DNA from: Longimicrobiales bacterium
Lineage (GTDB): Bacteria > Gemmatimonadota > Gemmatimonadetes > Longimicrobiales > Gaopeijiaceae
Length of the DNA: 64,000 nt
Direction of reading: 5' to 3'
NCBI GenBank assembly: GCA_965219445.1
Contig: CBDCNQ010000004.1
Coordinates: 1,164,103 to 1,228,102 of the forward strand
A program made the translations under genes and the position numbers. Below are positions 1,640-60,255 of this stretch, one piece after another (position 1 is the stretch's first letter; the number at the start of each line of letters is the position of its first letter). The notes below the pieces were generated by a model that made no database searches, was not told where the DNA came from, and worked only from the letters and a program-made list of their open reading frames with translations.

Positions 1640-3147
1640 GCACATCCGCTGAACACATGAGCCAGCAGGACCTTGAGTCCTACCTCTGGGGCGCCGCGAA
1701 GCTCTTGCGGGGCCTGATCGATGCCGGCGACTACAAGCAGTACGTCTTCCCGTTGCTCTTCTTCAAGCGCCTGTCGGACGTGTGGGACGAGGAGTACCAA
1801 CGCGCGCGCGACGAGACGGGTAACGCTCGGGCCACTGCCGATGACCGTTTCGTGATCCCCGACGGCGCACACTGGTCCGACGTCCGCAGTGCGTCTCGCG
1901 ACGTGGGCCGGGCACTGCTTAAGGCCTTCCGCGCCATTGAGGCGGCCAACCCGGAGCGCCTGAACGGCGTCTTCGGGAATGCCTCGTGGACAGACAAGGC
2001 GCAGATGCCCGACGAGACGCTGAAGAATCTCATCGAGCACTTTTCACAGCACACCTTGAGCTTGGCCAAGGTCCCAGAGGACGAGCTGGGCAACGGCTAC
2101 GAGTACCTCATCAAGCAGTTCGCCGCCGACAGCGGCCACACCGCGCAGGAATTTTACACCAACCGCACCGTGGTCCATCTCATGACGCAGATGCTTGAGC
2201 CGCAACCGGGTGATCGCATCTACGATCCAACGGCCGGCACGGCCGGCATGCTCATCTCGTCGCTGGCGGAGGTGAAACGCCGAGGCGGTGACGCGCGCAC
2301 GCTGGGGCTATACGGCCAGGAGCTGATCCACATCACGGCCGCCATTGCCCGGATGAACTTGGTCCTGCACGGCGTGGAAGACTTCGAGATCGTCGCGGGC
2401 AACACGTTGAGCCAGCCAGCATTCATCGACCGCGACCACCTACGGACTTTCGACGTGGTCCTCGCCAATCCGCCGTACTCGATCAAGAAGTGGAACCGCG
2501 AGGCGTGGCAGCACGACCCCTGGGGCCGCAACTTCCTCGGGACGCCGCCGCAGGGCCGCGCCGACTACGCCTTCTTCCAGCACATCCTCAAGAGCCTCGA
2601 CCCACAGACCGGCCGCTGCGCAATTCTCTTCCCGCATGGTGTGCTCTTCCGCAACGAAGAAGCGGCGATGCGGCGACAGCTTGTCGAGTTGGACCTTCTC
2701 GAGTGTGTGCTCGGCCTCGGACCGAACCTCTTCTATAACTCGCCCATGGAAGCCTGCGTGGTGGTGTGCCGAACACGGAAGCCCTCCGGCCGCGAGGGAA
2801 AGGTCTTGTTCATCGACGCTGTGCATGACGTGGCACGGGAGCGGGCCCAGAGCTTCCTCAAGGCCGAACATCAGCAGCGCATTCTCACCGCCTATCAGGC
2901 GTTTACCGATGACCCCGGCTTCGCCAAGGTCGCGACGGCGACGGAAATCCTCCAGAAGGACGGCAACCTGTCGATCTCACGCTACGTGCGGCCAGTTGCC
3001 GGTGCAGCCGACGACGCCAGCCCAGGCGGCGATCTGCGGAGCGCTTGGGCCGAGTTCGAAGCGAGCGGCCGCGATTTCTGGCCGCAGATGGACGCGCTCG
3101 TAGACATACTGGATGGCGTTGCCACAGAGGAGACGTCCGATGCTTAA
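1636..3147 (+). CDS. hsdM: Type I R-M methyltransferase subunit (NPPY motif IV)
   Basis: YDPTAGTAGML motif I, ANPPYS motif IV, EFYTNR. Confidence 0.95.
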   Translation: MSTSAEHMSQQDLESYLWGAAKLLRGLIDAGDYKQYVFPLLFFKRLSDVWDEEYQRARDETGNARATADDRFVIPDGAHWSDVRSASRDVGRALLKAFRAIEAANPERLNGVFGNASWTDKAQMPDETLKNLIEHFSQHTLSLAKVPEDELGNGYEYLIKQFAADSGHTAQEFYTNRTVVHLMTQMLEPQPGDRIYDPTAGTAGMLISSLAEVKRRGGDARTLGLYGQELIHITAAIARMNLVLHGVEDFEIVAGNTLSQPAFIDRDHLRTFDVVLANPPYSIKKWNREAWQHDPWGRNFLGTPPQGRADYAFFQHILKSLDPQTGRCAILFPHGVLFRNEEAAMRRQLVELDLLECVLGLGPNLFYNSPMEACVVVCRTRKPSGREGKVLFIDAVHDVARERAQSFLKAEHQQRILTAYQAFTDDPGFAKVATATEILQKDGNLSISRYVRPVAGAADDASPGGDLRSAWAEFEASGRDFWPQMDALVDILDGVATEETSDA

Positions 3148-4321
3148 ATCGGCGTCCAAGAACGGGTGGATCAAGCACCGCTTCGATGAGATGGCGGTCG
3201 TGGTCAATGACCGCATCGATGACCCTGCCAAAGCCGACGTTGAGTACTACGTCGGCCTTGAGCATCTCGACTCTGAGTCACTCGCCATCCGTCGATGGGG
3301 AGCACCCTCTGACGTAGGTGCAACCAAACTGCGATTTCGGGCTGGTGACATCATCTTCGGTCGGCGGCGGGTGTACCAACGCAAGCTGGCGGTGGCCGAC
3401 TTTGACGGCATTTGTTCGGCGCACGCCATGGTACTCCGGGCGAAGCCAGCCGTCGCGTTGCCTGAGTTCCTACCATTTTTCATGCAGAGCGACCTCTTTA
3501 TGGAGAGGGCGAGGGAGATTTCTGTCGGATCCCTGTCGCCGACAATCAACTGGAAGACCTTGGCGAAGGAAGAGTTCGCCCTGCCGCCGCTGGGAGAGCA
3601 GCGGCGGATTGCTGAGGTTCTAGGTGCAGCGGAGTCGGTGGTTGAGTCGCTACGTAACCTGAGACGATCGCTCCACGCTGTAGAAATCGGACACCTTGAG
3701 GACGTCATGCTCGGAATGCCTAATAGTGCACTTGTACCTGTGGCGACACTACTCCGCGAGCCGCCGCGAAACGGCATCTCCCCGAGTGTAAACTCCGATG
3801 GAGAAGGCCTCAAGACAGTGAGTATCAGCGCGGTCAGTGACGGGATCTTCGATCCAACCGGGTGCATCAAACATGCGAAGATCGATGCTGACGTTGCCTG
3901 CCAGTTCTTTGTAAAGCGCGGGGATGCCTTTGTCATTCGTGGCAACGGGAATCGTCAACTTTGCGGCAAGGTGGGCCTCAGCGACGAATCCCACGATGAA
4001 CTCTTCTACCCGGATCTTCTAATTCGGCTTCGTTTTGACACGAACAAAATTCTCCCGCAGTTCGCAGTAGCACAGTGGAACTTGCCCAGCGTCCATAGGC
4101 GGCTTAGTGCTAAAGCTAAGTCATCAAATGGGATCTGGAAGGTCAATGGACAAGACATCCGTGCTCACCATCTCTTCGCCCCTGCTCCTGCGGAACAGCG
4201 GAGCATGATGGGAGATCTCGCCACGCTTCGGGCGGGTCTTTGGAATGTCCGGGCACGCGAAGGAGCCGCTCAGCGTATCAAAGGGATATTAACGACAGAG
4301 GTTGGGTCAATAGGTGTGTAA
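3140..4321 (+). CDS. hsdS: Type I R-M specificity subunit; last codons come from the IS256 end
   Basis: Two TRDs, LPPLGEQRRIAEVL conserved spacer, follows hsdM; reads into the IS256 inverted repeat at 4298. Confidence 0.9.
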   Translation: MLKSASKNGWIKHRFDEMAVVVNDRIDDPAKADVEYYVGLEHLDSESLAIRRWGAPSDVGATKLRFRAGDIIFGRRRVYQRKLAVADFDGICSAHAMVLRAKPAVALPEFLPFFMQSDLFMERAREISVGSLSPTINWKTLAKEEFALPPLGEQRRIAEVLGAAESVVESLRNLRRSLHAVEIGHLEDVMLGMPNSALVPVATLLREPPRNGISPSVNSDGEGLKTVSISAVSDGIFDPTGCIKHAKIDADVACQFFVKRGDAFVIRGNGNRQLCGKVGLSDESHDELFYPDLLIRLRFDTNKILPQFAVAQWNLPSVHRRLSAKAKSSNGIWKVNGQDIRAHHLFAPAPAEQRSMMGDLATLRAGLWNVRAREGAAQRIKGILTTEVGSIGV

Positions 4322-4326
4322 ATGTT

Positions 4327-5571
4327 TCAGGCGGCGTTTTTCCGCTGTTGGGTTGAGACGGGCTTTCCGTCTTCGAACTTTCTTCCTTCAAATACGTCCT
4401 TGAGGAGGTGAGGAGCGTCGAGCCTTCTGAAGCGCTTCTCCGCCACCAAGAGCAGCTTCCAGATCAGCGCCGTAGCGCTCTCGACCCGCTTGAAGCGCTT
4501 CGCCGCCGTTGTCCTGAGCCGTACTGCGGCAAAGGGGCTCTCGACCACGTTCGTCGTGCGTAGATGCTTCCAGTGGTCCTCGGGGAAGTCGTAGAACGCC
4601 ACCATCCGCTCCCAGTCGTCCTCGAGTACATCCACCGCCTTCGGATACCACGGTCTGTAGCGCCTGGCGAACGCCTCACGGGCCTTCAGCGCCTCGGACC
4701 GCCTCGGTGCGTAGACCACGGTCCTGAGAAGGTCCTTCGCCTCGCTCTGCTCCCGCTGAGGCAGCCGGTCCAGCACGTTCCTCATCTTGTGGTTCCAGCA
4801 CCGTTGCTCGCCCGCCTCAGGCCATACCTGCCGTACTGCGCCCCAGATCGCCGCGTTGCCGTCCGCCATCAAAAGCCGGGGCGCCTCGATGCCGCGTGCC
4901 TTCAGATCCCGCAACACCTCGGACCAGGACTCGACCGACTCTCGGTAGCCCGATCTCAGGGCCAACACCTCCTTCGTACCATCTCGCATCGCACCGAGAA
5001 CCACCAGCAGCGCTGCCTTGTCCCGCTCGAGCCCCGCCTTCACGTAGATCCCGTCCGCCCAGACGTAGACGACCTCACGGTCGGCCAGCGAGCGCTTCGA
5101 CCATTCCTCGAATTTCCTTGTCCATCCCGCCCGCAGCCGCCAAATCGAAGACTTCGACAACGGGGCCCCCTCGCCCAGCAGGCCCCGCATCGCCAGCTCG
5201 AAGTCTCCCTCCGCCAGCCCGTGCAGATACAGCTCCGGAAGCAGAGCACCCACCTCCTTCGTCCGTCGTGCGAACAACGGCAACACCCGACTCTCGAACC
5301 GCTCCTCAATGCCTCGAACCCGGGGCCGTCGGAGCATGATCGTGCCCGAGCTCATCGCCAGCCGCCGAGCCTTGCCGTAGCCGTTGCGGTAGCCTGGCGC
5401 CGGGTCTACGACCGTCTTCCGCTCCGACTTCTCCCGGCCGAGCAACTCCGTCACTTCCTCCTCCAGAATCCGCTGGACCATCTCCTGGGCCTTCTCACGA
5501 ACCAGCGCTTCCAAGCACTCCCACGTCGGCGTGCTGGACTCACTCTCGGGTCCCACCATATTCTTCCTCAC
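4327..5571 (-). CDS. IS256-family transposase
   Basis: YRNGY, WADGIY, MADG, QRCWNHK, RTTNVVES motifs; identical protein at 56222-57466. Confidence 0.95.
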   Translation of the reverse strand: MRKNMVGPESESSTPTWECLEALVREKAQEMVQRILEEEVTELLGREKSERKTVVDPAPGYRNGYGKARRLAMSSGTIMLRRPRVRGIEERFESRVLPLFARRTKEVGALLPELYLHGLAEGDFELAMRGLLGEGAPLSKSSIWRLRAGWTRKFEEWSKRSLADREVVYVWADGIYVKAGLERDKAALLVVLGAMRDGTKEVLALRSGYRESVESWSEVLRDLKARGIEAPRLLMADGNAAIWGAVRQVWPEAGEQRCWNHKMRNVLDRLPQREQSEAKDLLRTVVYAPRRSEALKAREAFARRYRPWYPKAVDVLEDDWERMVAFYDFPEDHWKHLRTTNVVESPFAAVRLRTTAAKRFKRVESATALIWKLLLVAEKRFRRLDAPHLLKDVFEGRKFEDGKPVSTQQRKNAA

Positions 5572-5664
5572 GAGGCATCGTTCCTTTCCCCCGGGCGCTC
5601 ACCCGGGATTCGCTGGTTAACTTCTTACTACCTAGCGGAAAGGTACGTCGCCTCTTTTTTTACA

Positions 5665-7564
5665 ATCGGGATAGGGGAGGACCGGCGATCCCGGTCCTTC
5701 CCCTCCCACACCACCAGGCATGCGGGTCCGCACCTGGCGGTTCGGTGAGTTGAGGTCAGTACGGCGTGAGCCGGGGCACACCCAGCTCGTCGAAGTACGC
5801 CCCTGGCAAGGCCGTGTGCAGGGCGTGGTGCGCGGCCACGTGCCACCAGCTTCGCGCGAACCGAGCAGCTCGCCAGGCGAGGTTCTCGCTCACACCGCGA
5901 GCCCTCAACTCCCGGTACGCTGTCCTTCCCCGTTTCCACTGGCGTAATTGCAACGTACGCAGCCGGCGGTGGATCCATTGGTCCAGGTCTCGGAAAACCC
6001 CCGGTGTATCCGCTAAGCCGAAGTATGCCTTCCACCCCAGCACGTAGCGCCGTAGCTCTTCTGCCACCTGTTGCAGGCTCCGCCCGCCACTCCGGCTTGT
6101 AATCTGCCGGACTCGCTCCTTGAACTTCGTCAGGGCCTTCTTGCTGACCCGGCGCTTCACGACCTTCCCTGCCGCTACCCAGAAGCTGTAGCCCAGGAAC
6201 TGTCGATCCCACACTCGCGCCACCGCGCTCTTTTCCTCGTTGACCTGAAGCCGAAGTTTCCCGTACAAGTGCCTCAGCGCCTGCATCACACGTTGTCCTG
6301 CCCGCCTCGACCGCACGTATACATTGCAGTCATCGGCGTACCGGACAAACGCGTGTCCGCGTAGCTCCAACTCCTTGTCCACTTCGTCCAGGAGCACGTT
6401 CGCCAGCAACGGCGACAACGGTCCGCCCTGAGGCGTCCCCATGTGCCGCTCCATCACCACCCCGTTCGCCATGACTCCGGCTTCCAGGTAGCGACGGAGG
6501 ATCCGCAGCATCGCCTTATCCTCGATCCGCTTTGCCAGCCGCCCCATCAGCACGTCGTGGTTCACCCGGTCGAAAAACTTCTCCAGGTCCACATCCACCA
6601 CCCATCGTCTCCCCTCCTGGATGTAGTGCTGCGCTTCGCGCACCGCATCGTGCGCTCGGCGCCCAGGCCGGAAGCCGTGGCTGTGCCGACTGAACGTCGG
6701 GTCGAACCTCGGTTGCATCACCTGCAGGATGGCTTGTTGGATGAACCGGTCCAGCACGGTCGGAATCCCCAACTCCCGGACCCCTCCCCCACTCTTCGGT
6801 ATCTCCTGCCTTCGTACCGGCTTCGGTTGGTAGGTCCCCGCCAGCAACCGCTGTCGGATCTCCCCCCAGTGCCTGCGCAAGTACTCTGGCAGCTCCTCCA
6901 CGTTCATCCCGTCGATGCCCGGACTGCCCTTATTCTGCCGCACGCGTTTCAACGCTCCTACGAGGTTGGCACGCCCGACCACCTCCTGCATCAGGAGATG
7001 CTCGCTTCCTGAGCGCTCGTCTCCATGGGCCACCGTTCCGGCTTCGCCACTCCCCTCTACCTTCGGGGCTTCACCCCTATCCTCCAGTGGGAGCTCCAGT
7101 TGCCTGGACTCCTGGCGCATGGCCTTGCCGAGGTCCACGGTCGTCACGCTCTCCTCTCCGTTCGGCCCTTCGTCCGACAAAGCTGGGTCCAAGCGCATCA
7201 TGCACTTCGTCGGCCTACTATGGCCTCTGCTGACTTCTCGCTCCGCCGGCAGGCCCAACAGCGCAGTGCCGGCGTCACCCTTTCAGGCGTCAGGCGAGAC
7301 CTCCCCGGGTAAGAACGATGACCTTCCCCGCACAATCGCCGGATCTACGCCGCTTCCCCTTGGTCGCAGGAGCTTCGCGGTCAGTGGTCCGCTCGCCCCG
7401 GTCCGCAGCGCCTCGTATCCGGTTCCTGTTCGTCGACTCACGGGTTCGTTTCACGCTTCGTTCAGCGTACGCCTCACGACGAACGCCTTGCGCTTCCCTT
7501 CGGTCCCTGCGACCAGGTTCCGGGAGGACTTTCACCTCCAAGTCATCGCCCATGCCGGGCCCAC
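5665..7564 (-). mobile_element. Group IIC intron, copy 1 (1900 nt)
   Basis: 5' GTGGGCCCGGCATGGG; domain V/VI 3' end GAACCGCCAGGTGCGGACCCGCATGCCTGGTGGTGTG..CCTATCCCGAT; boundaries fixed by comparison with copy 2. Confidence 0.93.
5756..7147 (-). CDS. ltrA: Group II intron reverse transcriptase/maturase (start approximate)
   Basis: GTPQGGPLSPLLAN, RYADD, maturase X domain, no endonuclease domain (class C-like). Confidence 0.93.
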   Translation of the reverse strand: MTTVDLGKAMRQESRQLELPLEDRGEAPKVEGSGEAGTVAHGDERSGSEHLLMQEVVGRANLVGALKRVRQNKGSPGIDGMNVEELPEYLRRHWGEIRQRLLAGTYQPKPVRRQEIPKSGGGVRELGIPTVLDRFIQQAILQVMQPRFDPTFSRHSHGFRPGRRAHDAVREAQHYIQEGRRWVVDVDLEKFFDRVNHDVLMGRLAKRIEDKAMLRILRRYLEAGVMANGVVMERHMGTPQGGPLSPLLANVLLDEVDKELELRGHAFVRYADDCNVYVRSRRAGQRVMQALRHLYGKLRLQVNEEKSAVARVWDRQFLGYSFWVAAGKVVKRRVSKKALTKFKERVRQITSRSGGRSLQQVAEELRRYVLGWKAYFGLADTPGVFRDLDQWIHRRLRTLQLRQWKRGRTAYRELRARGVSENLAWRAARFARSWWHVAAHHALHTALPGAYFDELGVPRLTPY

Positions 7565-7744
7565 CACCCTTCTATGGGGCTGGCGGTCAAGACGCACCTT
7601 CCCCACGCGCCGTCGGCTCATTTTTTGACCGTCGGCGTCCGCATGGTTTGGATTGCCCGGTCGACGACTCAGGGTGGGGAGGGGTGCGCTCGCAGGGTCC
7701 GCATCGCAGTCCGGAAGACGTTCACAGCCGTCGCGTTCTCCGCT

Positions 7745-7880
7745 CTGGAGCGGGAACCATCCTTCTATCTGGGACTCTGTGGCCCATCGCTTCGTTCGGC
7801 TCTCCAGGGGTGCATAGCCTTTGAGTGGGGGCTTGGGCTCTCTGCCCCGGCCCACGGTGTGTATGGATGCTGTCCCCTGT
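7745..7880 (-). ncRNA. Predicted bridge/seek RNA guide loops of the IS110 element (full RNA ends unknown)
   Basis: Two stem-internal loop-stem domains. Loops match the target (GGTGTGTA 7856-7863, CCTTTGA 7818-7824) and the donor junction (CCTTCTAT 7761-7768, CATC 7785-7788). Confidence 0.8.
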
Positions 7881-7956
7881 AACCGGTTCGCTTCCGTTTC
7901 GTCGGACCCCATGTTGTGACCGCTTTCGACCCCACGCTCGCCGATCCCAGGCCGGT

Positions 7957-9012
7957 TTACTCCGTCGCTTCCAGTCTCTTGGGGTCGTACGCTTCGCCCG
8001 TGCGCCACACCGCTAGCACGATCGAGGCGAGCTGACGCGCGATCGTCAGCTTCGCCAGATTCGGCTTCGTGCCCCCCTCCAGGAGTCGCTCGTAGTGGCG
8101 GTACAAGGGCTCGTCCTCGGCCCGACCGATCACCGTCGTCGCTGCGCCCTTGAACACACGCTTCAGCGTGTGGTTGAAGTTCCGATTCAGCCCCCGCGTC
8201 TGCTGTACCGGTTCCCTTACCCACCGCCCACCCGGACCCCGCACCCAGTCCGACGAGCTCCGCATCACGACGCCCAGTCCGCAGTACGCCCAGAACCTGC
8301 TCCGGCTCTGGAACCGGTACGGCGTCACCACCACCGGCAGGAGCTCCGCCGTCCGGATCGGACCCAGACCCGGGCACGTCTTCAGCACATGCCACTCTCG
8401 ATGCTTGCGTGCTTCCGCCAGCAACGCCTTCTCGGCCTTCGCCCTCAATGCCACGAGTGCGTCGTGCTCCTCGTACAGCAACCCGGCCGTCGTCCTGCTC
8501 GCTTCCGGCAGCTTGGCCAACCACTCCTCCCGGTCGCGCTTTAAGTAGACCGAGCGCCCCGCGCCGTAGGCCACTCCTCTCGAGCGCAGCACGCTCTTGA
8601 GCCGGTTCTTCACCCGCACCGTGTCGCCGACCAAGAAGTCGTAGCTCTTCGCCCGTTCCCCCAGCCGCCTGAACTGGCCCCGGTTCTTGTAGACCGTCGT
8701 CTCCAGTGATCCGATCCGCAGCTTCTCCGCCAGGGCAAACGCGTCCAGCTTGTCGGTCTTCGGGCCCCGGCTCTTGCCGACCCCCGCCACCGTCAGCTCC
8801 TCCACGTGCGGCTTCAGCACCTCGTACAGCCACCCCGACAGCGTCCCTTCTTCCAGGCATAAGTGCCGGTTCCTCGGAATCCCTCGCAGCACCTCGATCA
8901 GCGCCCGCGCGTTCGTCTCCACCACCTGCGAGCCCAAGCGCTTGCCGCTGGGGCCTACAATCCCCAGCGTGCAGCTCGACGCGTGTGCGTCGAGTCCGAT
9001 ATACCTCTCCAT
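7957..9012 (-). CDS. IS110-family recombinase/transposase
   Basis: RuvC-like DEDD (YIGLDAH, LEEG, KTDKLDA); C-terminal AYCGL..RSS serine motif; AGGAGG RBS. Confidence 0.93.
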   Translation of the reverse strand: MERYIGLDAHASSCTLGIVGPSGKRLGSQVVETNARALIEVLRGIPRNRHLCLEEGTLSGWLYEVLKPHVEELTVAGVGKSRGPKTDKLDAFALAEKLRIGSLETTVYKNRGQFRRLGERAKSYDFLVGDTVRVKNRLKSVLRSRGVAYGAGRSVYLKRDREEWLAKLPEASRTTAGLLYEEHDALVALRAKAEKALLAEARKHREWHVLKTCPGLGPIRTAELLPVVVTPYRFQSRSRFWAYCGLGVVMRSSSDWVRGPGGRWVREPVQQTRGLNRNFNHTLKRVFKGAATTVIGRAEDEPLYRHYERLLEGGTKPNLAKLTIARQLASIVLAVWRTGEAYDPKRLEATE

Positions 9013-9207
9013 GGGCATCCTCCTCTTGGGTAGGACGGGTTGGGTTGCTTGCTTGCGCGAATAATGATGAACGCGCACCCGCTCCCGGAGGAGAACGCCT
9101 CTTCGTCTTCGGGCTGCTTCGCTGCTGATCGGTACCGGTAGCGGTCGCCATGCCCCTATGATGCCTTTGATCCTAGCTCCCTTGGCGACACACAGGGTGT
9201 GGCCTGG

Positions 9208-12177
9208 ATGGGTAGCTTCAACGAAGCCAATACGGTCGAAGCTTTCATCCGAGACCGTCTATGTGGCGGTACCACACATCACACCGCCGTCCGCTCCGGC
9301 CTGGCCCATCGTCACAGTCAAGTGTCCGGTCTTGGCTGGCACTACCTCGCACCACAGAATCTGTCACGCCAGCCGCACGAAGTCCTCGTTGAGGATCGTC
9401 TCCGTGAGGCGTTGATTCGACTGAACCCGGAAATTGCCGAACAGCCTGACCGTGCGGACGACGTCCTGTACAAGCTCCGCGCCATCATCATGGGCGTACG
9501 TAGCGACGGGCTTGTCAAGGCCAACGAGGGGTTTGCGGCTTGGCTGACCGGCGAGCGGTCGATGCCGTTTGGCGAGCATGGCGAGCACGTGACCGTCCGG
9601 CTGATTGACTTCGAGGACCTCAAGCGCAATCAATACGTCGTCACCACCCAGTTCACCTACCGTGCCGGCGCGACCGAGAAGCGGGCGGATCTCGTCCTGC
9701 TGGTCAACGGCATTCCCCTGGCGGTAATCGAAGCGAAGACTCCCGTCCGGGCCAGCCAAAGCTGGTTCGACGGCGCACTCCAGATCCATGACGACTACGA
9801 ACGCAATGTCCCGGAGCTGTTCGTTCCAAACGTCATCTCCATCGCCACTGAAGGCAAAGAGTTCCGGTACGGGTCCATCGGTCTGCCGGTTGAACTGTGG
9901 GGACCATGGCGCATCGAGGCGGACGCTGAGACACCGGCCCTTGTGCGCATCGCCCAAGCCGTCGACTCGATGCTACGGCCGAATGTCGTTCTGGATCTAC
10001 TGGCCAACTTCACAGCGTACGCCACGGACAAGAATAAGCGCCGCATCAAGATAGTTGCGCGCCATCAGCAGTACGAGGCCATCAATCGAATCATGGAGCG
10101 TGTGGTCGCGGGCCACCCGAAAAAGGGTCTCATTTGGCATTTTCAAGGTTCGGGCAAGTCCCTCCTGATGCTCTTCGCCGCCCGCAAGTTGCGACTGCAT
10201 GCGGCGCTCAAGAATCCCACCGTGATGGTCGTGGTCGATCGCGTCGACCTCGACAGCCAGATTTCGAGCACGTTCTACGCCGCCGACACACCGAACTTGG
10301 TGAAGGCCGACAGTCGGGTCGAACTGCAGCGCCTGCTGACGCAGGACACTCGAAAGATCATCATCACGACGATCTTCAAGTTTGCGGAGGCCGAGGGTGT
10401 CCTGAACGACCGCGGCAACATCATCGCGATGGTCGACGAAGCCCATCGCACGCAGGAAGGCGATCTTGGCCGCACGATGCGCGAGGCGCTACCAAACGCT
10501 TTTCTGTTCGGCCTGACCGGCACACCGATCAACCGCGCTGACCGCAACACGTTTTACGCCTTTGGGGCCGAGGAGGACCAAGCTGGCTACATGAGCCGCT
10601 ACGGTTTCGAGGAATCGATCCGCGACGGCGCCACGATGCCGCTCCACTTCGAGCCGCGGTTACTGGATCTGCACATCGACAAGGAAGCCATCGACCAGGC
10701 GTTCACGCAGCTCACGGGTCGCCTAAGCGACCTGGACAGGGACCAGTTGGCGAAGACTGCCGCGAAGATGGCGGTACTGGTGAAGTCCCCGGAACGGATC
10801 CAGACGGTCTGCGCCGACATCGCGCGGCACTTCCAAGAGAAGGTCGCGCCGCACGGCTTCGGCGCCCAGGTGGTCACCTTCGACCGCGAAAGCTGTGTGC
10901 TCTACAAGGAAATGCTCGACGAGCACCTGCCGTCTGAGATGTCGGACATCGTGATGACGGTCAACAGCGGCGAGGACCAATATGCCGCGTACCGTCGCGA
11001 CCGCGACGCCGAAGAGAAGCTGCTTTACCGATTTCGCGATCCAGCCGACCCACTGAAGATCTTGATCGTCACCTCGAAACTGCTGACGGGGTTCGACGCG
11101 CCTATTCTTCAGGCGATGTACCTCGACAAGCCGCTTCGAGACCATACGCTGCTACAGGCGATCTGCCGCACGAATCGGCCCTTCGGTGAGGTCAAGACGC
11201 ACGGGCTCATCGTTGACTATCTTGGGGTCTTCGACGATGTGGCGCAGGCGATTCAGTTCGACGAGGAAGGAATCACCAGGGTCATCAAGAACATCAGCGA
11301 GTTGGCTGGTCGTCTGCCCGAGGCTGTGCAGAAGTGCCTCGCGTACTTCCCGGACGTCGATCGGATCGTTACCGGTTACGAGGGCCTCGTGGCGGCGCAG
11401 GCCTGCTTACCGACCAACGACGTGCGAGATCACTTCGCCGCCGACTACAGCTACCTGGCGCGATTGTGGGAGGCCCTCTCACCGGATCCTGTCCTGAGTG
11501 CGCACGAGACCGACTACCGCTGGCTCACGCAGGTCTACGAGTCTGTGCGACCTTCGACGGGCACGGGCCGCCTTCTGTGGCATGCACTTGGCCCGAAGAC
11601 CATTGAGCTGATTCACGAGCACGTCCACGTTGACGCCATCAGAGACGACCTCGAAACGCTCGTGCTCGACGCCGATCTCCTTGAGGCTGTGCTCGGCGCG
11701 CCCGATCCAGGGAAAAAAGCGAAGGAGATCGAGATCAAGGTCTCGCGGTGGCTTCGGAAGCGTCTGCACGACCCTCGGTTCAAAGAGCTTGGAGAACGGC
11801 TGGAGGCGCTCAAGGAGAGACATGAGCGGGGACTGCTCACGAGTGTTGAGTTCTTGAAGGAACTGCTTAATCTCGCGCGGGATGTCGTGTCAGCCGATCG
11901 CACGGTGCCTCCGATGGAACGCGAAGAGCAAGGGAAGGCGGCTCTTACCCAGCTCTTTGAAGAGGCGAGAAATCCCGACACTCCGATCATCGTCGAGCGC
12001 GTTGTGACCGACATCGACGAGATCGTGCGGTACGTTCGGTTCGACGGCTGGCAGAGTACGCATGCGGGCGAACGCGAGGTCAAGCTAGCCCTTCGAAAAA
12101 CGCTCTTCAAGTACAAGCTCCATCAAGATCAGGAGCTGTTCAACAGAGCGTACGGCTACATCAGAGAGTATTACTAA
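9208..12177 (+). CDS. hsdR: Type I restriction endonuclease subunit R
   Basis: RADLVLLVNGIPLAVIEAK nuclease motif, HFQGSGKS, DEAHR, LTGTP, LLTGFD, QAICRTNR. Confidence 0.95.
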   Translation: MGSFNEANTVEAFIRDRLCGGTTHHTAVRSGLAHRHSQVSGLGWHYLAPQNLSRQPHEVLVEDRLREALIRLNPEIAEQPDRADDVLYKLRAIIMGVRSDGLVKANEGFAAWLTGERSMPFGEHGEHVTVRLIDFEDLKRNQYVVTTQFTYRAGATEKRADLVLLVNGIPLAVIEAKTPVRASQSWFDGALQIHDDYERNVPELFVPNVISIATEGKEFRYGSIGLPVELWGPWRIEADAETPALVRIAQAVDSMLRPNVVLDLLANFTAYATDKNKRRIKIVARHQQYEAINRIMERVVAGHPKKGLIWHFQGSGKSLLMLFAARKLRLHAALKNPTVMVVVDRVDLDSQISSTFYAADTPNLVKADSRVELQRLLTQDTRKIIITTIFKFAEAEGVLNDRGNIIAMVDEAHRTQEGDLGRTMREALPNAFLFGLTGTPINRADRNTFYAFGAEEDQAGYMSRYGFEESIRDGATMPLHFEPRLLDLHIDKEAIDQAFTQLTGRLSDLDRDQLAKTAAKMAVLVKSPERIQTVCADIARHFQEKVAPHGFGAQVVTFDRESCVLYKEMLDEHLPSEMSDIVMTVNSGEDQYAAYRRDRDAEEKLLYRFRDPADPLKILIVTSKLLTGFDAPILQAMYLDKPLRDHTLLQAICRTNRPFGEVKTHGLIVDYLGVFDDVAQAIQFDEEGITRVIKNISELAGRLPEAVQKCLAYFPDVDRIVTGYEGLVAAQACLPTNDVRDHFAADYSYLARLWEALSPDPVLSAHETDYRWLTQVYESVRPSTGTGRLLWHALGPKTIELIHEHVHVDAIRDDLETLVLDADLLEAVLGAPDPGKKAKEIEIKVSRWLRKRLHDPRFKELGERLEALKERHERGLLTSVEFLKELLNLARDVVSADRTVPPMEREEQGKAALTQLFEEARNPDTPIIVERVVTDIDEIVRYVRFDGWQSTHAGEREVKLALRKTLFKYKLHQDQELFNRAYGYIREYY

Positions 12178-56192: not shown

Positions 56193-57580
56193 GAGGTTGG
56201 GTCAATAGGTGTGTAAATGTTTCAGGCGGCGTTTTTCCGCTGTTGGGTTGAGACGGGCTTTCCGTCTTCGAACTTTCTTCCTTCAAATACGTCCTTGAGG
56301 AGGTGAGGAGCGTCGAGCCTTCTGAAGCGCTTCTCCGCCACCAAGAGCAGCTTCCAGATCAGCGCCGTAGCGCTCTCGACCCGCTTGAAGCGCTTCGCCG
56401 CCGTTGTCCTGAGCCGTACTGCGGCAAAGGGGCTCTCGACCACGTTCGTCGTGCGTAGATGCTTCCAGTGGTCCTCGGGGAAGTCGTAGAACGCCACCAT
56501 CCGCTCCCAGTCGTCCTCGAGTACATCCACCGCCTTCGGATACCACGGTCTGTAGCGCCTGGCGAACGCCTCACGGGCCTTCAGCGCCTCGGACCGCCTC
56601 GGTGCGTAGACCACGGTCCTGAGAAGGTCCTTCGCCTCGCTCTGCTCCCGCTGAGGCAGCCGGTCCAGCACGTTCCTCATCTTGTGGTTCCAGCACCGTT
56701 GCTCGCCCGCCTCAGGCCATACCTGCCGTACTGCGCCCCAGATCGCCGCGTTGCCGTCCGCCATCAAAAGCCGGGGCGCCTCGATGCCGCGTGCCTTCAG
56801 ATCCCGCAACACCTCGGACCAGGACTCGACCGACTCTCGGTAGCCCGATCTCAGGGCCAACACCTCCTTCGTACCATCTCGCATCGCACCGAGAACCACC
56901 AGCAGCGCTGCCTTGTCCCGCTCGAGCCCCGCCTTCACGTAGATCCCGTCCGCCCAGACGTAGACGACCTCACGGTCGGCCAGCGAGCGCTTCGACCATT
57001 CCTCGAATTTCCTTGTCCATCCCGCCCGCAGCCGCCAAATCGAAGACTTCGACAACGGGGCCCCCTCGCCCAGCAGGCCCCGCATCGCCAGCTCGAAGTC
57101 TCCCTCCGCCAGCCCGTGCAGATACAGCTCCGGAAGCAGAGCACCCACCTCCTTCGTCCGTCGTGCGAACAACGGCAACACCCGACTCTCGAACCGCTCC
57201 TCAATGCCTCGAACCCGGGGCCGTCGGAGCATGATCGTGCCCGAGCTCATCGCCAGCCGCCGAGCCTTGCCGTAGCCGTTGCGGTAGCCTGGCGCCGGGT
57301 CTACGACCGTCTTCCGCTCCGACTTCTCCCGGCCGAGCAACTCCGTCACTTCCTCCTCCAGAATCCGCTGGACCATCTCCTGGGCCTTCTCACGAACCAG
57401 CGCTTCCAAGCACTCCCACGTCGGCGTGCTGGACTCACTCTCGGGTCCCACCATATTCTTCCTCACGAGGCATCGTTCCTTTCCCCCGGGCGCTCACCCG
57501 GGATTCGCTGGTTAACTTCTTACTACCTAGCGGAAAGGTACGTCGCCTCTTTTTTTACACACCCTTCGATCCTAGCTCCC
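56193..57580 (-). mobile_element. IS256 copy C (uninterrupted)
   Basis: Both imperfect inverted repeats present; no TSD visible. Confidence 0.93.
56222..57466 (-). CDS. IS256-family transposase
   Basis: Identical protein to 4327-5571. Confidence 0.95.
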   Translation of the reverse strand: MRKNMVGPESESSTPTWECLEALVREKAQEMVQRILEEEVTELLGREKSERKTVVDPAPGYRNGYGKARRLAMSSGTIMLRRPRVRGIEERFESRVLPLFARRTKEVGALLPELYLHGLAEGDFELAMRGLLGEGAPLSKSSIWRLRAGWTRKFEEWSKRSLADREVVYVWADGIYVKAGLERDKAALLVVLGAMRDGTKEVLALRSGYRESVESWSEVLRDLKARGIEAPRLLMADGNAAIWGAVRQVWPEAGEQRCWNHKMRNVLDRLPQREQSEAKDLLRTVVYAPRRSEALKAREAFARRYRPWYPKAVDVLEDDWERMVAFYDFPEDHWKHLRTTNVVESPFAAVRLRTTAAKRFKRVESATALIWKLLLVAEKRFRRLDAPHLLKDVFEGRKFEDGKPVSTQQRKNAA

Positions 57581-58355: not shown

Positions 58356-60255
58356 GTGGGCCCGGCATGGGCGATGACTTGGAGGTGAAAGTCCTCCCGG
58401 AACCTGGTCGCAGGGACCGAAGGGAAGCGCAAGGCGTTCGTCGTGAGGCGTACGCTGAACGAAGCGTGAAACGAACCCGTGAGTCGACGAACAGGAACCG
58501 GATACGAGGCGTTGCGGACCGGGGCGAGCGGACCACTGACCGCGAAGCTCCTGCGACCAAGGGGAAGCGGCGTAGATCCGGCGATTGTGCGGGGAAGGTC
58601 ATCGTTCTTACCCGGGGAGGTCTCGCCTGACGCCTGAAAGGGCGACGCCGGCATTGCGCTGTTGGGCCTGCCGGCGGAGCGAGAAGTCAGCAGAGGCCAT
58701 AGTAGGCCGACGAAGTGCATGATGCGCTTGGACCCAGCTTTGTCGGACGAAGGGCCGAACGGAGAGGAGAGTGTGACGACCGTGGATCTCGAGAAGGCCA
58801 TGCGCCAGGAGTCCAGGCAACTGGAGCTCCCGCTGGAGGATAGGGGTGAAGCCCCGAAGGTAGAGGGGAGTGGCGAAGCCGGAACGGTGGCCCATGGAGA
58901 CGAGCGCTCAGGAAGCGAGCATCTCCTGATGGAGGAGGTGGTCGGGCGTGCCAACCTCGTAGGAGCGTTGAAACGCGTGCGGCAGAATAAGGGCAGTCCG
59001 GGCATCGACGGGATGAGCGTGGAGGAGCTGCCAGAGTACTTGCGCAGGCACTGGGGGGAGATCCGACAGCGGTTGCTGGCGGGGACCTACCAACCGAAGC
59101 CGGTACGAAGGCAGGAGATACCGAAGAGTGGGGGAGGGGTCCGGGAGTTGGGGATTCCGACCGTGCTGGACCGGTTCATCCAACAAGCCATCCTGCAGGT
59201 GCTGCAACCGAGGTTCGACCCGACGTTCAGTCGGCACAGCCACGGCTTCCGGCCTGGGCGCCGAGCACACGATGCGGTGCGCGAAGCGCAGCAATACATC
59301 CAGGAAGGGAGACGATGGGTGGTGGATGTGGACCTGGAGAAGTTTTTCGACCGGGTGAACCACGACGTGCTGATGGGGCGGCTGGCAAAGCGGATCGAGG
59401 ATAAGGCGATGCTGCGGATCCTCCGTCGCTACCTGGAAGCCGGAGTCATGGCGAACGGGGTGGTGATGGAGCGGCACATGGGGACGCCTCAGGGCGGACC
59501 GTTGTCGCCGTTGCTGGCGAACGTGCTCCTGGACGAAGTGGACAAGGAGTTGGAGCTACGCGGACACGCGTTTGTCCGGTACGCCGATGACTGCAATGTA
59601 TACGTGCGGTCGAGGCGGGCAGGACAACGTGTGATGCAGGCGCTGAGGCACTTGTACGGGAAACTTCGGCTTCAGGTCAACGAGGAAAAGAGCGCGGTGG
59701 CGCGAGTGTGGGATCGACAGTTCCTGGGCTACAGCTTCTGGGTAGCGGCAGGGAAGGTCGTGAAGCGCCGGGTCAGCAAGAAGGCCCTGACGAAGTTCAA
59801 GGAGCGAGTCCGGCAGATTACAAGCCGGAGTGGCGGGCGGAGCCTGCAACAGGTGGCAGAAGAGCTACGGCGCTACGTGCTGGGGTGGAAGGCATACTTC
59901 GGCTTAGCGGATACACCGGGGGTTTTCCGAGACCTGGACCAATGGATCCACCGCCGGCTGCGTACGTTGCAATTACGCCAGTGGAAACGGGGAAGGACAG
60001 CGTACCGGGAGTTGAGGGCTCGCGGTGTGAGCGAGAACCTCGCCTGGCGAGCTGCTCGGTTCGCGCGAAGCTGGTGGCACGTGGCCGCGCACCACGCCCT
60101 GCACACGGCCTTGCCAGGGGCGTACTTCGACGAGCTGGGTGTGCCCCGGCTCACGCCGTACTGACCTCAACTCACCGAACCGCCAGGTGCGGACCCGCAT
60201 GCCTGGTGGTGTGGGAGGGGAAGGACCGGGATCGCCGGTCCTCCCCTATCCCGAT
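58356..60255 (+). mobile_element. Group IIC intron, copy 2 (1900 nt)
   Basis: Near-identical to 5665-7564; inserted 13 nt after the terminator U-tract. Confidence 0.93.
58773..60164 (+). CDS. ltrA: Group II intron reverse transcriptase/maturase (start approximate)
   Basis: PQGG, YADD, X domain; GGAGAGGA RBS before GTG at 58773. Confidence 0.93.
   Translation: MTTVDLEKAMRQESRQLELPLEDRGEAPKVEGSGEAGTVAHGDERSGSEHLLMEEVVGRANLVGALKRVRQNKGSPGIDGMSVEELPEYLRRHWGEIRQRLLAGTYQPKPVRRQEIPKSGGGVRELGIPTVLDRFIQQAILQVLQPRFDPTFSRHSHGFRPGRRAHDAVREAQQYIQEGRRWVVDVDLEKFFDRVNHDVLMGRLAKRIEDKAMLRILRRYLEAGVMANGVVMERHMGTPQGGPLSPLLANVLLDEVDKELELRGHAFVRYADDCNVYVRSRRAGQRVMQALRHLYGKLRLQVNEEKSAVARVWDRQFLGYSFWVAAGKVVKRRVSKKALTKFKERVRQITSRSGGRSLQQVAEELRRYVLGWKAYFGLADTPGVFRDLDQWIHRRLRTLQLRQWKRGRTAYRELRARGVSENLAWRAARFARSWWHVAAHHALHTALPGAYFDELGVPRLTPY

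Follow-up and report, generated by a model that had tools for sequence, protein, structure and literature searches.

A putative RNA-guided IS110-family element with an IS1111-type layout, programmed on the left terminal repeat of IS256 elements in a Longimicrobiales genome

In the genome of a Longimicrobiales bacterium, a type I restriction locus is interrupted between hsdM/hsdS and hsdR by three nested elements, all on the minus strand. One of them, an IS110-family element, sits within a terminal repeat of another, an IS256-family element, and this raises the question of what brought it to that site. We analyzed the surrounding 64,000 nucleotides, which we will call the window; coordinates are positions in it unless a contig is named. 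We conclude that the inner element very probably encodes an IS110-family bridge recombinase, has an IS1111-type layout, and parasitizes IS256. This conclusion rests on the identities of the parts, the site preference of the copies, the covariation between guides and flanks, and the helices of the RNA. Expression of the RNA, the circular intermediate, and the chemistry would follow the precedent of IS621.

The IS256 host element occupies 4298-5664, 7565-7567, and 9166-9179, as judged from its other copies in the genome. It contains a right terminal repeat (4298-4322), a transposase gene (4327-5571; PF00872, and NF033543 with 295 bits), and the inner part of the left terminal repeat (up to 5664). 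The transposase is of the mutator type, the two ends are alike, and copies have 8-9-bp target duplications, as in the IS256 family. Next comes an intron with a reverse transcriptase/maturase (5665-7564; Rfam RF02001, RF01998, and RF00029; TIGR04416), which we take to be of group IIC type. Three bases of the left repeat (7565-7567) separate the intron from the IS110 element (7568-9165, including both CC cores), which has 23 complete copies in this genome. The outer part of the left repeat follows (9166-9179), and on the plus strand it begins with the right target arm, TTTGA.

A preliminary description of this DNA proposed that excising the intron and the IS110 element restores the IS256 end. 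Indeed, TACA (5661-5664), CAC (7565-7567), CC, TTTGA (9166-9170), and TCCTAGCTC (9171-9179) join to form an end that exists uninterrupted in relatives, including 44 perfect copies in genome G063. Counting variants and this genome, an unbroken IS256 left end is present in 24 of the 201 family genomes searched. The window contains a second IS256 copy (56193-57578, minus strand) with an identical body and a free left end whose target is altered (TCGAAGG).

Because the intron splits the left target arm, it most likely arrived last, after the IS110 element. Just one of its 13 copies in the genome is in an IS256 end, and the junction of IS110 and IS256 was seen without the intron in contigs from two other sequencing runs. 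The 5' exons of the 13 copies end in GGTG (9 copies), TGTG (2), or TGTT (2), and hairpins are predicted, with no shuffle control, upstream of the insertion sites. Another copy of the group II intron (58356-60255, plus strand) is immediately 3' of a strong hairpin. As for the restriction locus, the 4.9-kb nested element parts hsdR from hsdMS (3113-4321 and 9199-12177), hsdS terminates within the IS256 right repeat, and the target duplication has been lost. The nested insertion may uncouple restriction from methylation.

The IS110 element encodes a 351-residue protein (7957-9012, minus strand) with the features of a DEDD/serine bridge recombinase. It matches PF01548 and PF02371, both above the cutoff, and it scores below the cutoff for the NCBIfam IS110 equivalog (112 versus 140). 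The putative catalytic residues D8, E55, D87, D90, and S253 align with those of IS621 and are conserved in 99, 91, 102, 102, and 101 of 102 relatives (those below 93% identity). An AlphaFold model (pLDDT 84, built with 41 sequences) best matches the structures of IS621 and ISCro4 (E = 7e-14, TM 0.62-0.66), to which the protein is 19-20% identical. Close relatives come from records of Longimicrobiales or Gemmatimonadota. A search of 72,556 plasmids gave 139 matches, and the best 40 of these have identities of 27% or less; the nearest named elements among those 40 are 23-26% identical and belong to mixed groups. The IS1111-group motif GL-P----S(t)G is absent: the protein has GLGVVMRSSS instead, with no proline, so we do not file the element as IS1111 sensu stricto. 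The residue following S253 is S in 70 of the 102 relatives, A in 17, and G in 15. Five copies in this genome (C2:522575, C3:162171, C4:326807, C5:1611139, and C5:1629063) have in common a frameshift close to codon 345, which lengthens the protein to 400 residues. They may have spread in trans, or the frameshift may be tolerated.

The element has 387 bp of non-coding sequence downstream of the recombinase gene and 151 bp upstream (cores excluded). The preliminary description saw two internal-loop domains in the downstream region, read on the minus strand. For the target loop (7806-7878) this was correct, as the loop lies between outer and inner helices that covary across 48 sequences. The second domain, the predicted donor-binding loop (7754-7802, minus strand), is less certain: its inner hairpin covaries and its closing stem has two competing pairings. 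Across the 48 sequences, 96% of the cells in the helices are paired, 11 of 26 pairs have two-sided changes, and covariation is 0.293 as compared to 0.138 after shuffling; control helices that were slid out of position are 36-53% paired. As a single sequence, the RNA region folds no better than shuffled sequences (z = 0.65 and -1.14), and no Rfam family matches the RNA. We fetched 157 related loci, and a scan for its motifs recovered the RNA at 98 of 187 loci.

The loops contain four putative guides, each preceded by CC[A/G/C/U] and followed by UG. On the minus strand, the left target guide UACACACC (7863-7856) lies in a nine-nucleotide slot (7863-7855) between CCA and UG, and the right target guide CUCAAAGG (7818-7825) matches 7 of 8 bases here and 8 of 8 in a variant from genome G064. 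Handshake bases CU (7817-7816) directly follow the right target guide. The right donor guide AUAGAAGG (7768-7761) matches the donor at all 8 positions and tracks the element's right end in 64 of 65 family rows. These guides had been reported from the sequence as UACACACC, UCAAAGG (7824-7818), and AUAGAAGG, and we found each in its place. When the 359-nt non-coding region was resampled 200,000 times under a Markov model, both target guides co-occurred at a frequency of 2.5e-5 and the right donor guide occurred at 0.0025.

The left donor guide was originally identified as GAUG. However, GATG occurs three times in the region and overlaps the conserved UG anchor, and only 26 of 41 distinct family elements retain it, so we rejected it. 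The guide in register after CCG is AACGAAGC (7796-7789, minus strand), with a 5/8 match to the donor. In one covarying relative, L052, guide (ACCGAUAC) and donor (AACGATAC) are altered together and match at 7 of 8 bases. The proposed 14-bp target (7+2+5) does match over 14 bp at this locus, but the right target guide of the family has 8 nucleotides (6+2), which gives the family a nominal site of 15-16 bp. As in IS621 (PMC11208158), the first handshake base and donor position 7 can pair, with G-U pairs counted, in 38 of 41 elements.

The ends of the element fit a circular intermediate. On the plus strand, the right end carries core CC (7568-7569) and the right donor arm TTCTAT (together 7568-7575), and the left end carries the left donor arm TATGATG and core CC (9164-9165; together 9157-9165). 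Joining them gives TATGATG-CC-TTCTA(T), the circle junction that was first described. On the minus strand, a right subterminal repeat (7573-7585) overlaps a -35-like TTGACC (7585-7590), so that these features span 7573-7590. The left subterminal repeat (9146-9158) matches it at 10 of 13 positions, and the terminal extensions are 7 bp and 3 bp. The complement of the left donor arm gives a -10-like CATCAT. In the predicted circle, the joined ends read TTGACC-17-CATCAT, with a spacing of 17 nucleotides, so circle formation would create a putative junction promoter. A role of the donor arm in this promoter may explain why the arm has drifted from the left guide. A scan of the linear locus for consensus promoters found none, and the circle junction is absent from the assembly and from the joints listed in four sequencing runs. 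Contigs of the one RNA run that was searched do not extend over the guide RNA. CC should be considered a nominal core. Four family rows have AG at the left junction and GG at the right junction, a pattern expected if the cut falls between the core bases or if pairing of the core is tuned to the exchanged state.

If the RNA chooses the site, then guides and insertion flanks should covary across recombinase homologs, a check that the preliminary description had proposed. Both target guides do covary with the flanks. With each distinct guide represented only by its first row, positions 1-6 of the right target guide agree with the flank at 116 of 132 positions (22 guides from 68 rows; 68±5 under the null), and the left target guide agrees at 172 of 216 (27 guides; 106±6 under the null). 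For the left guide we took the best of four registers and used 56 of 65 rows, after dropping 9 with a slipped anchor. Neither observed match was reached in any of 20,000 shuffles, a comparison that overstates significance because kin are not independent. The misses are L134 and L124 (4/8) and L092 and L065 (5/8) for the right guide, and L027 and L046 (3/8) and L029 and L041 (4/8) for the left guide. In L092, L124, and L134, the left flank fits the guide of a sister element rather than the element's own guide. This may reflect guidance in trans, mosaic copies, or a change of guide after insertion.

The distribution of the element within this genome points the same way. Besides the 23 complete copies, which are 98-100% identical with sharp ends, there is one broken copy and one relic left end. 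The preliminary description had proposed mapping the copies to see whether they lie in IS256 ends, and 22 of the 23 share a single insertion base in the IS256 left repeat, in one orientation. No copy was found at a site unrelated to the loops: the sole off-target copy (C2:336723) fits the loops, not IS256, matching the right guide at all 8 bases and the left guide, in a shifted register, at six. (An apparent 9-bp target duplication at this copy is an artifact.) A fixed target and orientation go with the lack of terminal inverted repeats in the element. A whole-genome scan for perfect empty 14-bp targets found none, and each of the five free IS256 left ends is altered within the 14-bp target.

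Could the sites instead be chosen by contacts between protein and DNA, or by the IS256 transposase or the structure of its ends, with the RNA match being secondary? One element type is strongly preferred and the left donor guide is weak, as this explanation would predict. But the IS256 right repeat, which is nearly identical and lies two mismatches away from the target, is unused (0 of 29 intact repeats are occupied). Also, off-target sites outside of IS256 match the loops, and relatives that are 77-82% identical go to different sites, in keeping with their loops. We therefore consider this explanation to be highly improbable. The RNA-guided reading, that an IS110/IS1111-type element is programmed on the IS256 end, is what the preliminary description had inferred, and the sites of the copies and the fit between guides and flanks support it.

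A different concern is whether most of the occupied ends arose from one or a few RNA-guided insertions, followed by co-transposition of an IS256::IS110 composite or by gene conversion. Exact 8-9-bp target duplications flank 7 of the 19 composites for which both ends were found, but these are also expected if IS256 inserted first. In G064, an A is beside the junction in 5 of 5 occupied ends and 0 of 10 free ends, yet the occupied bodies do not form a tight group apart from the free bodies. The IS110 haplotypes are mosaic, and duplications have been swapped between several copies, which implies recombination between copies. On the other hand, the 23 copies comprise 22 haplotypes, and the only identical pair is in IS256 copies that are 154 differences apart. 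The element occupies IS256 copies that are up to 280 differences apart, and the 12 composites that share an identical IS256 body each have a different IS110 haplotype. Because identical-body composites differ in their IS110 part, these sequences favor independent insertions, with the argument blurred by recombination between copies. Finally, the terminal repeat of a composite is split by 1.6 kb, which is expected to block IS256. On balance, spread as composites or by conversion seems unlikely to explain most of the occupied ends.

We also noticed several rearrangements. Target duplications are swapped reciprocally between composites on contigs C2-C5, such as C2:416894 and C2:467802; these may be inversions, exchanges between copies, or misjoins. 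Two different composites have the same 9 bases outside the left end (window 9180-9188 and C4:110857). At C5:1612737, 511 bp of the element's 3' part, with all or most of the bridge RNA, is tandemly duplicated. Similar duplications occur twice in G062 (458 bp each) and once in G168, where the copies are joined inside the left guide (three genomes in all; L221 and L276). They are possibly half-match events.

In the favored RNA-guided reading, the element would form a circle, by excision or by copy-out, and the joined ends would create a promoter. The recombinase would bind an RNA from the downstream non-coding region, whose target loop would pair with both strands of the left terminal repeat of IS256 and whose donor loop would pair with the circle junction. 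The DEDD/serine sites would exchange strands at the CC core, and the element would land 14-16 bp inside the IS256 end. Copies would have entered, independently, IS256 elements that were already in place, with the intron coming last, and the clade would have gained IS256 guides in two lineages.

Related elements are found in IS256 left ends in other genomes as well. In this genome, 22 left ends are occupied, 0 are free and perfect, and 5 are free and altered. The corresponding tallies are 4, 1, and 2 in G007; 4, 1, and 0 in G095; 2, 0, and 1 in G108; 5, 0, and 10 in G146; 6, 5, and 0 in G141; and 1, 44, and 1 in G063/G166. G141 (6 occupied and 5 perfect free ends) and G063 (1 and 44) rule out saturation as a general property. 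In these two genomes, every intact recombinase gene encodes G101R, and 89 of 102 relatives have G at this position; G101R is possibly a weak allele (two genomes only).

Off-target copies in three genomes resemble the loops rather than IS256. In G168, a 77% identical relative with other guides is found at matching other sites and is absent from that genome's 40 free IS256 ends; the target of this relative (L270 and L273) is another repeated sequence. In G095, a guide variant accompanies an end variant to which it is not exactly complementary, and three occupied ends carry a changed arm. One copy in G065 has changed guides, with its left junction in the IS256 right repeat and its other flank outside of IS256. 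A relic in G168 has the same inner-stem base as the window's RNA at 24 of 29 positions (counted by eye), and its guides are different. L274, in G141, has its right junction in IS256 and a left flank that is not IS256 and that matches the right guide at 8/8; it is possibly a one-ended rearrangement by the recombinase.

What do the altered free ends represent? They could be scars or escape variants, or they could be ordinary variation or assembly errors that have nothing to do with the IS110 element. We give this second view a substantial chance, though somewhat less than an even one. Ends with TCAAAAGG and TCAAATGG are found in genomes without an occupied end (37 of 40 ends in G168, for instance), and one altered end is a one-base loss in a run of A. 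Perfect free ends also persist beside the element, 5 in G141 and 44 in G063, but these are the genomes whose intact recombinase genes all encode G101R. In other members of the family, circle formation was found to leave no regenerated target (PMC11187229; bioRxiv 2025.10.25.684509), so an easy route to scars is lost. Against ordinary variation, three of the 15 copies with identical bodies have free, altered ends. About 0.03 altered targets would be expected among them, and the probability of three or more is about 5e-6 unless the bodies were homogenized. Furthermore, each of the three altered ends combines the left part of the target with the element's right end. Such hybrid ends could come from imprecise removal or from abortive cleavage, and homogenized bodies or a homopolymer error could mimic them. 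We do not consider escape variants to be proof of an arms race, as the same end variants occur in genomes without the element. Given those variants, and because saturation is not general, an arms race is only suggested.

Many relatives in the wider clade seem to have other hosts. Among the 78 parsed family RNAs, 34 predict at least 11 of the 16 bases of the ISCR27 oriIS (as printed in PMC8894482). Among 157 loci, many of them with short flanks, 11 have an IS91-type transposase gene facing the right end of the element. By their sequences, the members appear to be specialists for the ends of other mobile elements, with IS91/ISCR oriIS-like ends as common targets. Left-end relics of a related element, with the oriIS-type flank GGGATAG, are found at C2:661605 and at L230 and L234; in the genomes with these relics, the current element targets IS256.

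IS256 guides occur in two lineages, the window's and L092/L093, which are nested among oriIS-type elements; L093 is located in an IS256 end. An AU test rejects a single clade of IS256-guided elements (p = 4.5e-64; 28 family rows, quick trees, with the tested group named after the first tree was inspected). Recent block transfer of the target loop between the lineages is not supported, as the linker and the flanks follow the protein clades and the inner stems of the two lineages are 0.66-0.69 identical. The best reading of these sequences is that only the guides changed, in both lineages, and an old transfer of the target loop is possible. By rewriting their guides, relatives thus seem to have changed their host transposon more than once.

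A bolder view is that this deep IS110 clade is a dedicated and reprogrammable predator of transposons. It would have moved at least twice from IS91/ISCR origins to the IS256 left end by exchanging its two guide segments alone, it would fill every end and stop its host, and it would leave immune scars or select for escape ends, with guides tracking the variants. We hold this view only tentatively and think that it is more probably wrong than right. If true, transposons would be engaged in an RNA-guided arms race in nature, which would offer a direct means of asking how bridge RNAs gain new guides.

Targeting by bridge RNAs and the habit of inserting into other transposons are already published. 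Insertion into another transposable element at a specific site is shared with IS4321/IS5075 and ISEc21. IS4321/IS5075 reportedly insert into the terminal repeats of Tn21-family transposons, whereas the host here is an IS256 terminal repeat and relatives are on IS91/ISCR oriIS-like ends. The host of ISEc21 is an IS3-family transposase gene (PMC11187229) instead of a terminal repeat of IS256.

According to PMC11208160 and PMC11208158 and structures 8wt6 and 9t56, IS621 and ISCro4 share with our element the fold, the DEDD and serine residues, four guides in two loops, a two-base core, and the position of the handshake bases after the right target guide. Besides the low identity, they differ in that their RNA is upstream of the gene rather than downstream, their core is CT rather than CC, and their target is a REP sequence rather than a transposon end; our element also has 8-nt right guides and an imperfect left donor guide. 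The IS1111-group seekRNA elements ISEc11, ISKpn4, ISPa11, and ISPst6 (PMC11187229) have a long downstream non-coding region, as does our element. Those elements likewise have a guide for the top strand before one for the bottom strand (here, the guide at 7863-7856 pairs with the top, gene strand and comes first), 13-bp subterminal repeats with 7/3 extensions, and a junction promoter, which for our element is a prediction. Natural redirection among relatives was also described there, for ISEc11 versus ISXne4. Unlike the IS1111 group, with its perfect or near-perfect 11-13-bp repeats and its proline motif, our element has a 10/13 repeat and GLGVVMRSSS, and it lacks a close named relative (27% identity at most in the best 40 of 139 plasmid matches).

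TIGR-Tas and box C/D guides share the CC[A/G] and UG frame, as described in PMC12045711, which already states that IS110 RNAs share these box C/D-type boxes. Our profile and fold searches show weak similarity to TIGR-Tas. Unlike TIGR-Tas, our element has no array and has an active-looking recombinase within an insertion sequence. We did not find IS256 or oriIS as an IS110 target in the literature searched; ISfinder, subscription papers, and preprint supplements may hold the clade. For instance, neither target appears in the available text or supplements of PMC11208160, PMC11187229, or 10.64898/2026.10.21.760802 (outside of the 32,190-RNA set of the latter).

The basic mechanism is not new, and what this clade adds is a dense natural dataset and a repeated switch of host. 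It provides a well-supported natural bridge recombinase that is distant from those tested (19-20% identity), with a CC core and 8-nt right guides. Because of these features and the signs of recent movement (23 near-identical copies), its sequence makes it a sound choice to test as a programmable tool. The genomes also contain natural controls for studying how nature rewrites guides: two lineages whose IS256 guides are nearly the same, guides that vary stepwise, off-target copies, and altered free targets.

Two further relatives may be mentioned. In genome G005, a 40% identical relative has 15 copies that are clustered in a few regions of one chromosome. Two copies of a 16-bp palindrome-like sequence, presumably parS-like, flank the relative at locus L054.
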